A stretch of DNA of 64,000 nucleotides, from NCBI GenBank assembly GCA_963770835.1, contig CAVYRH010000011.1:1-64000 (forward strand), written 5' to 3'. Each line of letters starts with the position of its first letter. The first letter of the stretch is position 1. The position numbers and the translations under genes were made by a program. Source of the DNA: an uncultured Pseudomonadota bacterium. Lineage in GTDB: Bacteria > Oederibacteriota > Muellerivitia > Muellerivitales > Muellerivitaceae. Shown piece after piece: positions 1 to 9,687 of the stretch. Under the pieces are notes generated by a model. That model had not been told where the DNA came from, ran no database searches, and saw only the letters and a list, made by a program, of their open reading frames with translations.

Positions 1-10
1 GTCCACGACG
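1..10. repeat. 5' arm of intron-targeted palindrome (5' exon, contains IBS1 CACGACG of intron 1)
   Basis: GTCCACGACG is the reverse complement of CGTCGTGGAC at 1958-1967; nt 4-10 pair with EBS1 at 224-230. Confidence 0.8.
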
Positions 11-1951
11 GTGCGTCCAGAAAAGGCAGGTGTGTTCAGCAAGAGATAGTCTTGCATGGGTAATAGCCAAAGCCCATTAGCTAGGATGGCAGGCAAGCGG
101 GAAACCAAATGCCTGAAGCCCATCAACAAAGCCATCGAAAGGATGGTGAGCGAGTCGTCGGGCCGTAACGAAAGTAAATGCACAGGTGGCCCCGAAAACA
201 CTTGCCTCGGAGGCTGAGTCCGCCGTCGTGGGACGAAAGCATCATGGGACAGCGCGGAGAAATGGCTGAAGCGCTGGAACACTCCGACGGGGTGATAGCA
301 ACGGCACGAAGACAAGGACACGCCAAGCAACTGGAGAAACCCTCCTTGCCCCAGGCAGAAATGCTTGGAGAAAGGTAGGCCGTATAACCGTGACGCGGGA
401 AAACGGTCGAAGGTGAGAGGGTTTAGGATGGGTTCATGGTAGCGATGAAGCGGGGTAATGCCCGTGGAGCGAAGGAACCCTGCTGTTGTTAAGTCCCTCG
501 ACAAAACGGAAGGCAGTGACGGTATGAAAAAGACGTCAATTAACCTGCAAGACCTGAGACGAGAGATATACGTCAAAGCGAAGGCTGAAAAGAACTGGAG
601 TTTCTGGGGACTGTACACCCATGTTTGCAAGATGGAAACGCTTCAACAGGCTTACCGAATGGCTAAGGTAAATAACGGAGCCCCTGGAATAGATGGGGTG
701 ACGTTTGATGCCATTGAGGAGGCCGGAGTGGAGTCGTTTCTGGAAAGCATCCGGGGTGAATTAGTTCAAGGCACGTATAAGCCCGTTCGAAACCGGAAGA
801 AGGAAATACCCAAGGGAAATGGGAAGGTAAGAGTCCTTGGGATACCCAACATTCGGGATAGAGTAGTCCAGGGAGCACTGAAGTTTATTCTGGAACCGAT
901 TTTTGAGGCCGATTTTCAAGAAGGGTCCTATGGGTATCGACCCAAGCGGACCGCTCATGCGGCTGTGAACAGGGTAGCATCGGCAATCGTCTGTAGAAAA
1001 ACCCGAGTCATTGATGTAGACCTCAAGGCATATTTCGACACGGTAAGGCACGACCTTCTGATGAAGAAAGTTGCCCGAAGGGTTGAGGATGAAACGGTGT
1101 TGAGATTGTTGAGGATGATCCTGAAGGCCAGCGGCAAAAGAGGAGTCCCGCAGGGAGGGGTTATTTCCCCTCTTCTGGCTAATCTCTACCTCAACGAGGT
1201 GGATAAGATGCTGGAAAAGGCAAAAGAAGTGACTCGGCAAGGGAAGAACAACTATATCGAATATGCGAGGTTCGCTGACGATATGGTGATCCTTGTTAAT
1301 GGATATCCGCAATGGGAATGGTTGGCAAAGGCTGCCTACCGAAGGTTACTTGAAGAATTGACCAAGCTCGACTTGCAAATCAACACGGACAAGACGCGGA
1401 TAGCAGACTTAACGAAAGGTGAAAGTTTCGGGTTTCTGGGGTTTGACTTTCGACAGGTGAAAACCCGTCGAGGGAAATGGGGGGTGAAGTTCACGCCGAA
1501 AATGAAGGCGCGAGCAACACTTCTGGGTAAGCTCAAGGAAACATTTGGAAGCTTCCAATCTCAGCCGGTGCAGAGGGTGATTGAGATTATCAATCCCAAA
1601 CTGCGTGGGTGGGTGAATTACTTTCGGATAGGGAATTCTAGGCGCTGTTTTAACTACGTGGAAAGATGGGTCGAGAATAAAATCAGACGGCATATGATGC
1701 GTGCGAAGAAGCTCGACGGTTTTGGGCGGGATAGGTGGAGTAGGGAGTGGATATATAAGTATCTGGGGTTGTACAGAAGCTACCAAATACGATATTACCA
1801 AGAACCGAAAGCGCTACCCGTCTGATAGGTCACATAAACTTTGACAGGAAAGCAACAGGTGAGCGTAGTGCGGGAAATCCGCACGCTACGTTCGAGGAGG
1901 CGGGGACTGGAAACGGAGCCAGAAGGCCACCGCACCAGTCCTCGACCCTAC
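11..1951 (+). mobile_element. Group II intron (IIB-like) encoding an RT/maturase
   Basis: 5' GTGCG; DI basal stem TCCAG/CTGGA; EBS1 loop CGTCGTG (224-230) complementary to exon 4-10; DV GAGCGTAGTGCGGGAAATCCGCACGCTACGTTC (1861-1893) with AGC triad; DVI ending CTCGACCCTAC. Confidence 0.95.
524..1825 (+). CDS. ltrA: Group II intron reverse transcriptase/maturase, no endonuclease domain
   Basis: RT motifs GAPGIDG, RDRVVQ, GVPQGG, RFADD, FLGF and X domain GWVNYF; ATG 524 lies in DIV whereas ATG 458 lies in DIII. Confidence 0.95.
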   Translation: MKKTSINLQDLRREIYVKAKAEKNWSFWGLYTHVCKMETLQQAYRMAKVNNGAPGIDGVTFDAIEEAGVESFLESIRGELVQGTYKPVRNRKKEIPKGNGKVRVLGIPNIRDRVVQGALKFILEPIFEADFQEGSYGYRPKRTAHAAVNRVASAIVCRKTRVIDVDLKAYFDTVRHDLLMKKVARRVEDETVLRLLRMILKASGKRGVPQGGVISPLLANLYLNEVDKMLEKAKEVTRQGKNNYIEYARFADDMVILVNGYPQWEWLAKAAYRRLLEELTKLDLQINTDKTRIADLTKGESFGFLGFDFRQVKTRRGKWGVKFTPKMKARATLLGKLKETFGSFQSQPVQRVIEIINPKLRGWVNYFRIGNSRRCFNYVERWVENKIRRHMMRAKKLDGFGRDRWSREWIYKYLGLYRSYQIRYYQEPKALPV

Positions 1952-1968
1952 GGGACCCGTCGTGGACA
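1952..1968. repeat. 17-nt inter-intron exon: loop and 3' arm of the target palindrome, contains IBS1 GTGGACA of intron 2
   Basis: Joining 1-10 to 1952-1968 gives the hairpin GTCCACGACGG-GGAC-CCGTCGTGGAC. Confidence 0.8.
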
Positions 1969-2768
1969 TCGTGCCAGAGGAGGGTTTGCAGAGCCAGCAG
2001 GTGAGGGAGTAGGCCGATGAGGGTCAACCCAAGTCCTGACCAGGTAATCACCAGAGAGCCTGGAAGTCAGCCCCCGGCGTAGGATCGAGAGGTCCTGCCC
2101 GAAACGGGGTCATAAACCTCATTTAGTGAGGGAACAATCCAGCAGTCCGCAACATCAAGTGAATCCTGCCGCTTCGTGAATGGGACACCGAAAGGTGCAA
2201 GGGGATGCCGAGCCGCGTGTCTACTGGCGAAGGCCACGATCCCGCTGAAGAATCTGGTAGCAAGCGGGGCAAGTCCTCCGGAGTATGGGGAACGGAATGT
2301 TGGAAAGGCTATGCAAGCAAGCTGGGAGATCCTACCCGCCAAAAGACTTGCCGCTATAAGGCTAAAACCGAAAAGAGGCAAGGGTGGGAGGAAGTCGGAG
2401 GGGGTCACAGTACCGATGAAGGGGTGGACAACAAAACCACCCTGAGGGAAGGACCCCTGCTTCAACCATGTGTCTCAAAGAAGGTAGGCGCTGGAGCATG
2501 CCCCAAAAGGGCCAACAACTCTGTAGTACCAAAGCGCGAGGCCTTTGACAACAGGCACTATGCCGAGCGGCCAAGGGGGAAGTCGAACCTGTAAAGCCGC
2601 CGGAGGAGAGGTTGTCGGAAAGCCGTATGATCGAAAAGGTCACGTACGGTTTGACGAGGGGGCGCTGGAAACGAAGTGATGAGGGAACCTCGTTGGGGCA
2701 CGGAACCGGAAACGGGGAAACAGATCAAGGAACCCTCTGCACACCATCGCGCCAGTGCTCTACTCTGC
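1969..2768 (+). mobile_element. ORF-less group II intron with non-canonical termini
   Basis: DI stems CCAG/CTGG and TTGCAGAGCC/GGCTATGCAA; EBS1 TGTCTAC (2218-2224); J2/3 GGA; DIII GGGGTCACAGTACCGATGAAG...GAGGGAAGGACCCC; DV AAGCCGTATGATCGAAAAGGTCACGTACGGTTT (2620-2652); extended DVI ending CTCTACTCTGC. Confidence 0.85.
2498..2575 (+). pseudogene. Relic N-terminus of an intron-encoded protein in DIV of intron 2
   Basis: Translates MPQKGQQLCSTKARGL*QQALCRAAK, resembling the KVRxLQxxLYRAAK N-terminus of group II IEPs; stop at 2546. Confidence 0.55.
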
Positions 2769-2817
2769 AACAAAAAAAGTGCTGAATAGGCTGTCCCGTG
2801 TTTGAGGGAGAATTTCT

Positions 2818-3858
2818 GTGAATAAAACTTTCTTGATGTTCTTCCTGCTTACCCAATCCATTTCCTTCGCGAAATCCCTCCCTATCATCAATCTTGGGGA
2901 CGCCAATCAGGCGCCAAATTATTCATCTAAATTGGTTTGTTCCAATCTTGCTCATGGTGAATTCACGGTTACGGACACTAACGAATATGGGGTGCTAATT
3001 GAGGGCGGCATAGGCATGTACTCCACGCCAAGTCCGACACTGGTGATCCGGCAGGACGGGAAAGTCAGGGAACTGGATCTTCAAAAAATGTTCAAAGGCG
3101 ACATCATCCGGCTAGTTATGGACGAGGAGGGGTTCTTATTTCTGGAAAACCAAGTGAAATTCGGCTGCCATTACGAGATCGCCTGTATTTCCCCAACAGA
3201 CAAAGTGTTATGGATAAAGCCCTTCACCTATGGCGGTGATTGTTTGGGTGGTGATACCTGGGGTATTTCTGTAGAGCTTTCCCATTTTGATAAGGGGATT
3301 TATGTCGATTATTACGAAAGGCTTCCGACCGGCGAATTCGCAATGAGAATCAAAAATAATTCGGCGAAATTATTTTACTTGAAGGACAAACTCAATAATG
3401 AATGGGAAATAGTCCTGCCAGAAAACAATAAAGGGTATGGTGAAAACATGAATTATTATTCCATCCCTAATACAATGAAAGAGGATTGTAAGATCGCGTA
3501 TAAAAACGGGAATAATACCACAATCGGGTGGGTTCAGATAAAAGAGGCGTATAACCCGAAAGTATCAGGCCAGCCCACCCGGTTGGTCGATCTTTACAAG
3601 GACAAATCGGGGAAATTGTACGCCCTGTATTTTTATGATTCCCCTTTAGGGAACGCTTACTCGGATTTCAGGTATGTTGTGACCTATTCAAAAGACGGTT
3701 TACCTACTGGAAAATACGAGATTAAACCAGGTGAAAAATTCCGTATGTTCCAAACCTATCGGTTTGGAGAGCACCCTTACAATGAAAAGGGCGAGATATA
3801 CTTCAGCCGGTCGCGGGACCGCCAACACCAAGATTTGTTAAAGCTCACCCTCCAGTAA
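2818..3858 (+). CDS. Hypothetical secreted protein, AT-rich
   Basis: 346-aa ORF, signal-peptide-like N-terminus, GGGAG RBS, visibly lower GC than its neighbours. Confidence 0.7.
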   Translation: MNKTFLMFFLLTQSISFAKSLPIINLGDANQAPNYSSKLVCSNLAHGEFTVTDTNEYGVLIEGGIGMYSTPSPTLVIRQDGKVRELDLQKMFKGDIIRLVMDEEGFLFLENQVKFGCHYEIACISPTDKVLWIKPFTYGGDCLGGDTWGISVELSHFDKGIYVDYYERLPTGEFAMRIKNNSAKLFYLKDKLNNEWEIVLPENNKGYGENMNYYSIPNTMKEDCKIAYKNGNNTTIGWVQIKEAYNPKVSGQPTRLVDLYKDKSGKLYALYFYDSPLGNAYSDFRYVVTYSKDGLPTGKYEIKPGEKFRMFQTYRFGEHPYNEKGEIYFSRSRDRQHQDLLKLTLQ

Positions 3859-3895
3859 TAAAAAGTTCCGTCTTTAAAAGCGGAGGTTTGAAATA

Positions 3896-3925
3896 GTCCA
3901 CGATGAGGGAACCCGCATTGGACAA
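3896..3925. repeat. Degenerate second copy of the intron target palindrome, followed by a T tract (possible terminator)
   Basis: GTCCACGATGAGGGAACCCGCATTGGACAA aligns with the reconstituted GTCCACGACGGGGACCCGTCGTGGACAA. Confidence 0.65.
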
Positions 3926-4025
3926 CCTTTTTTCAATAAAAGCGTTTTCGGGCCGTTGTCCCACCCCCTGAAAGCTTCCGCCTTCCTGATAGAATAACGC
4001 CTTCTAATTTCCTAAAAGGTAAGCC

Positions 4026-8695: not shown

Positions 8696-9199
8696 ATGAT
8701 TGAAATGAAGGTGCGGGGCATCGCGATCGATCCCAACCTCAAACAACCCGCGGTCATTCTGACCGATGAGGACGAGAAGCGTTATCTGCCCATTTGGATC
8801 GGGGTAGCGGAAGCTACGGCTATCTTCCTCAAATTGAGCGACCAATCCATCGCCCGGCCCATGAGCCACGACCTGTTGAAAAGCGTTATCGACGCCTTGG
8901 GGGCCAAAGTGTCCAAGGTGCTGGTCAGCGACATCAACCAAAACACTTTTTTCGCCCGCATTTTCATGGAAATCCCCGAGACCGGGGATAAGGTGGACGT
9001 GGACGCCCGGCCCTCGGACGCCATCGCCCTGGCCCTTCGCACGGGTTCCCCCATTTACGTCGCCGAAAAGGTGGTGGTGGCGCCCGGCGTGATCATCCTG
9101 GACAAGGACAAGTGCAAGGAAGAAATGAGCGAGTTCAAGAAGTTCCTTGAAAACCTTTCCCCGACGGACTTTAATTTCCCCGGAAAAAACAAGCCATGA
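8696..9199 (+). CDS. Bifunctional nuclease (DUF151) protein, copy 1
   Basis: LPIWIG..EA, RPMSHDL, DARPSDAIALA. Confidence 0.9.
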   Translation: MIEMKVRGIAIDPNLKQPAVILTDEDEKRYLPIWIGVAEATAIFLKLSDQSIARPMSHDLLKSVIDALGAKVSKVLVSDINQNTFFARIFMEIPETGDKVDVDARPSDAIALALRTGSPIYVAEKVVVAPGVIILDKDKCKEEMSEFKKFLENLSPTDFNFPGKNKP

Positions 9200-9687
9200 T
9201 CGAAATGAAAGTGCGCGGCATCGCGGTGGACCCGGGCTTGAAGATCCCTATGGTCATCCTGACCGACGAGGAGGAAAAACGCTACCTGCCCATCCCCATC
9301 GGGGTCGCGGAGGCCACCGCCATCTTCATCCAGCTCCAAGAGCAGGTCATCCCCCGGCCGATGACCCATGACCTTTTGAAAAATATCCTGGAAGCCCTTG
9401 GCGCCAAGCTGACCAAGGTGTTGGTCAACGACCTCCACCAAAACACCTTTTTCGCCCGACTGTTCCTGGAAATACCCGACGCGGCGGAAAAAATCGAGGT
9501 TGACGCCCGGCCCTCGGACGCCATCGCCTTGGCGCTACGCACCAATTCGCCCATTTTCGTGGCGGAAAAGGTGGTGGTGAACGCCACCATCGTCGACAAG
9601 GAAAAATATAAAGAAGAAATGAGCGAGTTTAAGAAATTCCTCGAAAACCTTTCCCCCACGGACTTTAATCTGCCGGGCCCTACCTGA
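9196..9687 (+). CDS. Bifunctional nuclease (DUF151) protein, copy 2
   Basis: RPMTHDL, DARPSDAIALA; ATGA overlap with copy 1. Confidence 0.9.
   Translation: MIEMKVRGIAVDPGLKIPMVILTDEEEKRYLPIPIGVAEATAIFIQLQEQVIPRPMTHDLLKNILEALGAKLTKVLVNDLHQNTFFARLFLEIPDAAEKIEVDARPSDAIALALRTNSPIFVAEKVVVNATIVDKEKYKEEMSEFKKFLENLSPTDFNLPGPT

Follow-up and report, generated by a model that had tools for sequence, protein, structure and literature searches.

Genomic context and architecture of the element

The window, i.e. the entire stretch of 64,000 nucleotides that was analyzed, is the start of contig C11 of the source genome (G000). It opens on the forward strand with the left arm of a palindrome (1..10), whose first base is lost at the contig start and which serves as the 5' exon of intron 1 (11..1951, forward strand). 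This is an RT-encoding group II intron of another family, with canonical GUGCG...AC ends, lodged where the arm of that palindrome meets the spacer. It shows an Rfam RF02003 match at 37-173, and its RT/maturase ORF (about 524-1825) specifies an RT that is 39% identical to that of the family described here. The spacer (1952-1957) and right arm (1958-1968) of the palindrome follow, and this segment (1952..1968, forward strand) forms the 5' exon of a second intron in tandem, with IBS2 at 1956-1960 and IBS1 at 1962-1968. Further downstream, a cassette-like orphan gene of 346 aa without a Pfam family (2818..3858, forward strand) lies between the invaded site and the next palindrome, which is degenerate (3895-3924). 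Two tandem similar genes at 8696-9687 of the window, upstream of the ATP synthase operon, are presumably DUF151-like. A promoter and terminator scan of 1800-4000 returned 2 and 1 sites respectively, the same as in shuffled sequences.

The second intron, the subject of this report, is an ORF-less group II intron of 800 nucleotides (1969..2768, forward strand) with the ends UCGUG ... UGC, as established from Rfam profiles, BLAST, its copies in the genome, a GH43 reading frame and alignment folding; no credible ORF was detected within 1969-2768. Its 5' end (UCGUG, 1969..1973) was placed by the GH43 frame and by family comparison. Folding of the alignment delineated domain I (1974..2325), which is closed by a stem at 1974-78/2321-25 and contains epsilon-prime (2050-51), a presumed delta (G2217) and, as recognized by their pairing across the family rows, EBS2 (2180-84) and EBS1 (2218-24); from the coordination loop, U2284 is a candidate for EBS3. 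Domain II (2326..2396) and domain III (2401..2457), also delineated by alignment folding, are separated by the J2/3 GGA (2397..2399), in which G2397 would be gamma and pair with C2768, as its counterpart does in known introns. A collapsed domain IV (2463..2614) retains a remnant of the start of an RT ORF (ATG 2499-2501) and a CT (2519-2520) that is the IS110 site in other copies. Domain V (2618..2654), identified with Rfam, carries the catalytic triad AGC (2621-2623) and an AC bulge (2642-2643). Domain VI (2656..2765) has long distal hairpins and a candidate branch adenosine, the bulged A2762, 7 nt from the intron end and in a register matching that of intron 1. The element closes with G(n-1) and the terminal C, gamma-prime (2767..2768), both placed by the copies, the GH43 frame and family comparison, and the first base of the 3' exon (presumed IBS3, 2769..2769) is A.

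Alignment folding with 16 relatives recovered the helices of all six domains, many of them with two-sided changes. In the consensus fold of these relatives the terminal bases of domain VI are wrongly paired with J2/3, and the basal stem around A2762 hence comes from inspection and the Rfam alignment. Single-strand folding gave z = -2.98, with none of 20 shuffles equally stable. Rfam matches above the cut-off were obtained with RF02003 at 2025-2157 (57.8 bits, cut-off 49) and RF00029 at 2618-2768 (41.0, cut-off 40). The six-domain structure and the catalytic domain V, with its AGC triad and 2-nt bulge, mark the element as a group II intron. In this respect the alignment folding and the profile matches bear out the sequence-only reading, which had traced all six domains and whose landmarks (EBS1, the AC of epsilon-prime, A2762, G2767, C2768 and G2397 of J2/3) lie where it had put them. 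Its suggestion that searches relying on GUGYG/AY ends or on the RT would miss such an intron has to be tempered: Rfam detects it, though most copies scored 38.1, below the cut-off.

The ends UCGUG and GC depart from GUGYG and AY, which are a consensus with published exceptions rather than a strict criterion. The earlier reading had treated UCGUG as a whole as variant; this stands for U1 and fails for C2, the family norm, which occurs in 16/18 members including 6/8 of those with G1. Nor is its claim of co-variation between epsilon-prime and the 5' end upheld, as epsilon-prime is AC in 3/18 members and GC in 15/18, 14 of which have U4 and would form a G-U wobble. The AC at 2050-2051 is thus a compatible pairing without family co-variation, and is not diagnostic.

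Delineation of the intron boundaries

Searches of the genome recovered the 5' end of the element 14 times and its 3' end 12 times. There are 10 complete copies free of insertion sequences, of which 9 are identical and the tenth has one extra base; two further complete copies are interrupted by IS110 and two are cut by contig ends. Two pairs of copies have common upstream flanks and may each represent one locus. BLAST homology spans 1952-2769 and not 1969-2768, the limits at which the earlier reading had proposed to look for a stop; the copies do lie in many different flanks. The homology exceeds the intron because the upstream 17 nt are the conserved target, part of a palindrome found at many unfilled sites, and because A occupies position +1 in 12/12 copies with a 3' end. 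With an A at both sides of the intron, homology leaves a one-base doubt on its ends. Empty alleles of the filled sites were sought in the genome with 18 3' flanks, and none was found.

An independent criterion, a reading frame, was therefore used to settle the ends. One copy (G000:C4:389639-390439) interrupts a gene for a GH43 protein, and excision of exactly UCGUG...UGC restores a single frame of 711 aa; removal of one more base from either side destroys it. Pfam assigns PF04616 and PF17851 plus malectin to the two halves, which meet on PDB 5joz between residues 286 and 288, with a split codon in between. Only the ends at 1969 and 2768 restore this frame, in agreement with the earlier placement, and it rules out a start at GUGCC (1971) as well as an extra A at either end. 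Expression of the full GH43 enzyme would require exact splicing. In this GH43 and malectin-domain gene (L022, G000:C4:388678-391610), the target merely mimics the right arm of the palindrome. The element is thus a complete and well-delimited ORF-less group II intron.

Target recognition and the cassette-array palindrome

The 28-bp palindrome (11-6-11) occurs 85 times genome-wide at up to 6 mismatches and is absent from shuffled large contigs. Its copies form rows in the same direction, 0.3-4 kb apart, around single genes, and 10/85 are followed by this intron family, whose insertion at the palindrome edge keeps the 28 bp of the site together. The presence of an integron integrase next to the arrays was considered and rejected: the genome has 12 tyrosine recombinases, and the one adjoining an array end (L239) is phage-type-like and cut by a contig end. 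The palindrome hosts three intron families at different positions, with intron 1 at the junction of left arm and spacer (10/12 copies), a G004 intron (L225, G004:C1) inside the right arm and the present family at the right edge.

EBS1 (TGTCTAC, 2218-2224) pairs with 1962-1968 through 6 Watson-Crick pairs and one G-U, as had been read from the letters alone, and has the same loop position (4th of 11 nt) in 19/19 rows; its pairing with the last 7 exon bases keeps one register in all 19 and changes with the target. EBS2 pairs with bases -9 to -13, with a mean of 4.7 Watson-Crick pairs for each intron's own exon (19 rows) versus 3.0 for 204 cross pairings; for the window row, this comparison used the exon of an identical copy located on C3, and the IBS2 in the window itself has one G-U. 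Retargeted members change both EBS2 and the target. In one subclade (G000:C2 ~234140 and C19 ~427460; L192-L195, L197), EBS1 and EBS2 are now directed to another conserved site, of 17 bp, which in the source genome lies twice near tRNA-like genes. The A at +1 in 12/12 copies compares with A in 41/72 unfilled sites, a difference with a probability of about 0.001 if sites were chosen blindly. The constant +1 A would thus reflect target choice, most simply through EBS3-IBS3; it fits U2284, without covariation, and there is C at +1 in two relatives and G at +1 in sister B (see below). The EBS1 and EBS2 pairings indicate that the right arm and spacer are recognized through base pairing of the IIB-like kind, unlike the hairpin rule of IIC introns.

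Mobility and loss of the reverse transcriptase

The deleted RT ORF, the multiple precise insertions and the presence of a related IEP in the genome together characterize a non-autonomous intron. Its proposed membership of an active non-autonomous family fits the 9 identical copies at different sites and the RT-bearing sisters in the same genome. The element has recently multiplied to many copies, almost all of them located at the right-hand edge of the palindrome, and its RT ORF was lost in an ancestor common to ORF-less relatives in four other genomes.

An IS110-family element (PF01548, PF02371) was found 6 times in the genome, each time in an intron of this family and at one and the same CT of domain IV. 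These 6 copies are on C2, C3, C11, C20 and C26 of G000, at the equivalent of 2519-2520 of the window, a "parasite of the parasite". In three RT-bearing sisters, including B and D, IS110 sits after about codon 8 of the RT ORF. Because B and D carry it at the start of their ORFs, sister C or E would be the source of RT. Candidates for an intact RT are G000:C11:107425-109405 and two G1/A copies on C2 and C19. The family RTs have the motif YADD, and no En domain family was found in them. They form their own clade; the sole named reference in the tree, Rh.sp.I1, is unclassified, and the deep placement of the clade is provisional. The lineage is En-less and IIB-like, and would be class F-like or unclassified.

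Covariation of the first and penultimate bases

Matches to the DNA of the element were detected in 15/99 genomes of the phylum, the strong ones being nearly confined to the host family, and 11 metagenome loci were added to the family set. A pattern scan of the genome contigs gave at least 120 stretches; none of those listed had the DV motif as defined by the pattern used, which is not evidence of absence. The source genome itself has five RT-bearing sister copies or types, namely B, D (two copies), C and E (two copies). Sister B has U1/G(n-1) and sister D G1/A(n-1), and both are 92-93% identical to the element over 569 nt; sister C (78% identical) is U/G and sister E (74% identical) is G/A.

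The 18 distinct complete members of the family comprise 10 with U1/G(n-1), 8 with G1/A(n-1) and no mixed form. Excluded from these 18 were identical copies (L189, L191, L195, D on C26 and repeated G027 copies) and partial ones (L034, L036, L037, L050, L051, L057, L194, L196-L199, C20 and C24). Among 271 informative columns, only n-1 splits the 18 rows exactly as nt 1 does; the runner-up, in a variable loop, is off by one row. Partial copies were surveyed by their ends, which agree genome by genome, with TGC in G027 (every one of 13 matches), G010 (5) and G021 (1), and TAC in G002 (4) and G020 (1), against 0-5 matches per genome for a reversed control pattern. The refuting condition set by the earlier reading, canonical ends in homologous copies, did not hold: the copies keep U1/G(n-1) in many different flanks, and the sisters with G1 have A(n-1). 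The proposal that the two changes form a compensated boundary pair is supported within the family by this comparison.

Two members of unusual structure are L208 (G021:C42) and L196, twintrons with a second group II intron nested in domain III/IV. The ORF-less G1/A member L049 (G002:C90) has a 4-nt deletion in domain V and is probably dead. The member at L199:506 starts with CCGUG (C1), and its 3' end lies off the contig.

Both termini states are present in both RT clades, and the five aligned ORF-less members share one common collapsed domain IV while including both states. A single U/G clade is rejected on the RT tree (p-AU 1e-114; at least 3 state changes) and on the tree of domains I and II (p-AU 3e-7; 4 changes, 2 of them forced by well-supported branches). 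The independent contrasts number 2 on well-supported branches and 4 overall, with which a sign test cannot reach significance. The 5', RT and 3' trees disagree and the family is hence a mosaic, in which repeated mutation and recombination are inseparable. For example, sister B combines a clade-I RT and domain I with a domain VI like that of the clade-II member C.

Termini outside the family

Outgroups with readable ends are G1/A in 6/6 cases (intron 1, Rh.sp.I1, L225, L243, L253 and L255), suggesting that G1/A is the ancestral state; L252 is also G1/A by its EBS1 register. The related introns of Leptospira plasmids, with an RT 52% identical, begin with UCCCG, as fixed by an empty allele and EBS1. 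They insert directly after ATG and end in GC in L. noguchii and AC in L. interrogans, with G(n-1) in 3/3 copies of the former and A(n-1) in 4/4 copies of the latter, which have different flanks; these copies (L242, L245-L251) come from 7 of 20 listed plasmid records. By its EBS1 register L205 (G034) probably has U1 with U(n-1), although a 1-nt slide to GUCGC...AAU also keeps the frame. This intron (L205:1036-2992) is inserted directly after the start codon of a receiver-domain gene; it ends in AUG, apparently with C as gamma, and would supply the gene with a fresh start codon even if unspliced. Further unusual 5' bases in relatives are C1 in L199, A3 in L243 and C3 in Leptospira.

Thus U1 does not always need G(n-1), whereas G(n-1) is seen with U1 alone and was never paired with G1 in any intron examined. 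The occurrence of U1 with A or U partners weakens a claim of strict two-way dependence. Together with the restriction of G(n-1) to U1, it supports the order G-A, U-A, U-G.

Evolution of the variant termini

We favor, with a probability of about 0.7, the interpretation that the element is a non-autonomous IIB-like intron in which U1-G(n-1) is a working replacement of G1-A(n-1), and that selection keeps the two ends matched. The element would be transcribed together with the cassette and splice through a lariat at A2762, lariat self-splicing being predicted from its likeness to known group II introns. The RT of a sister intron would then act in trans in reverse splicing and copying. U1969 and G2767 would constitute the non-Watson-Crick pair of first and penultimate bases in the branched intron, and selection would remove G1-G(n-1) combinations, so that the ends stay matched in spite of the mosaic nature of the family. 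The likely path would lead from G-A through U-A to U-G. Of 24 listed RNA runs, none contained as many as half of the sequence words; the contigs of 4 of them contain no joints and no piece across either end of the element, and are uninformative on splicing.

Alternatively, though this appears unlikely, the match of the termini could reflect linkage of functionally independent letters, with a U/G haplotype that arose once and moves as a short tract over joined 3'-5' ends in circular or template-switched cDNA. The conflicting 5', RT and 3' trees, the mixed ancestry of sister B and the mobile appearance of the U1/A copies in L. interrogans lend this some plausibility; however, on every occasion the 5' tract would need a breakpoint within nt 2-9, as nt 10 onward follows the backbone type. 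Each state also occurs with either type of domain VI and either type of domain I, the U-G pair matches a laboratory suppressor, and the contigs of the 4 RNA runs contain no circle junction, which is a weak argument. A more speculative proposal, to which we give rather little credence, makes the termini pair a reversible two-state switch, with several independent replacements between U1-G and G1-A by a mutational route at the junction, and with the state biasing the choice of helper RT or pathway. UCGUG, the first five intron bases, is identical to positions -9 to -5 in the target arm that occurs most often, and a misaligned cDNA could in this way write U1 repeatedly. If real, such a switch would be a natural parallel, within one ribozyme family, of the GU-AG and AU-AC split of spliceosomal introns.

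It is improbable that one-way epistasis with drift accounts for the pattern, with nt 1 relaxed, U1 close to neutral and G(n-1) no more than tolerated in a U1 background. The U1/A(n-1) of all four L. interrogans copies, the probable U1/U(n-1) of L205 and the odd 5' ends at C1, A3 and C3 are what such relaxation would produce, but drift alone would leave some U1/A forms among the 18 complete members or the partial copies, and there are none. Finally, local decay, sequencing error or mis-set boundaries can be dismissed as very improbable: the overrun of homology to 1952 and 2769 might hint at the last of these, but the GH43 frame, the G at +1 of sister B and the unfilled sites with the upstream 17 nt speak against it, and identical ends recur in 14 copies, in relatives from three other genomes and in metagenome contigs.

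Relationship to known introns and implications

In group II introns the first and penultimate bases form a non-Watson-Crick pair needed for the second step of splicing (PMC4238363, PMC3669008), and in RmInt1 a G(n-1) opposite G1 strongly impairs this step (PMC4238363). U-G and C-G are listed as compensatory mutants attributed to Chanfreau and Jacquier 1993, and TeI4h as having a natural U-G termini pair (PMC8283771 Table 1). The published 5' consensus is GYGYG (PMC2396441); UUGCG starts are known in plant organelles (PMC6867995), and UHB.I2, located beside attC, has the ends UUGCG...GU (PMC7923331). Lariat splicing, reverse splicing, En-independent priming and help in trans are established (PMC4424553, PMC2882425), as is the multiplication of ORF-less introns with helper IEPs (PMC2882425).

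TeI4h of Thermosynechococcus elongatus (IIB1) is mobile and is listed with the natural U-G pair (PMC8283771), and the TeI3 introns of this organism are, like the element, ORF-less through one deletion and with ORF remnants; sister IEPs act on them in trans, as is proposed for the element (PMC2882425). These introns have a CL-type IEP with En, as opposed to the En-less RT here, and different targets, and U-G is reported for one intron there versus a family-wide polymorphism that includes an ORF-less form here. In aI5gamma, U-G and C-G compensate as mutants of G1/A886; of these combinations the present family has U-G, and C1 is found in a single partial member. Those are laboratory mutants of a yeast mitochondrial intron, whereas the family consists of natural, recently mobile bacterial introns. 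The metagenomic UHB.I2 (IIB1/CL1) resembles the element in having U1/G(n-1) and in its location immediately behind a recombination site of a cassette array, with the same orientation as the cassettes; it is a single predicted copy of a different class at attC, and its description mentions no covariation (PMC7923331). Group IIC-attC introns likewise colonize recombination sites of cassette arrays (PMC7923331, PMC4424553). As described there, a DNA hairpin replaces EBS2 and insertion is antisense, whereas in this family EBS2 is present and covaries, insertion is in sense and the site, a 28-bp 11-6-11 palindrome, is not attC. The nearest named relative is Rh.sp.I1 (class F/unclassified), in which, as in this family, an RT-X protein without En of about 430 aa with YADD is encoded in an intron of about 1.98 kb with an Rfam D1D4-4 match (PMC3552965). 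Its RT is 44.7% identical to the family RT; Rh.sp.I1 differs in having G1/A(n-1), and the family forms a separate clade.

The U1-G(n-1) pair itself is therefore already in print, and what is new is a natural covariation of the termini within one family. We found no report of G1-A/U1-G covariation within a family in the literature searched; the Zimmerly database and figure-only supplements may hold more examples of U1.

The contact between the first and penultimate bases is based on the yeast mutants of 1993 and a single crystal structure, and isolated exceptions to it occur in nature. The family adds phylogenetic support for this contact of a kind missing from the literature searched, and the sisters, 92-93% identical over 569 nt in one genome and differing at these two bases, offer natural pairs for testing it. 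For annotation, rules based on GUGYG and AY misplace the ends of a whole multi-copy family. In its host, the element is part of a nested system, in which three intron families share one palindrome and an IS110 element in turn targets introns.
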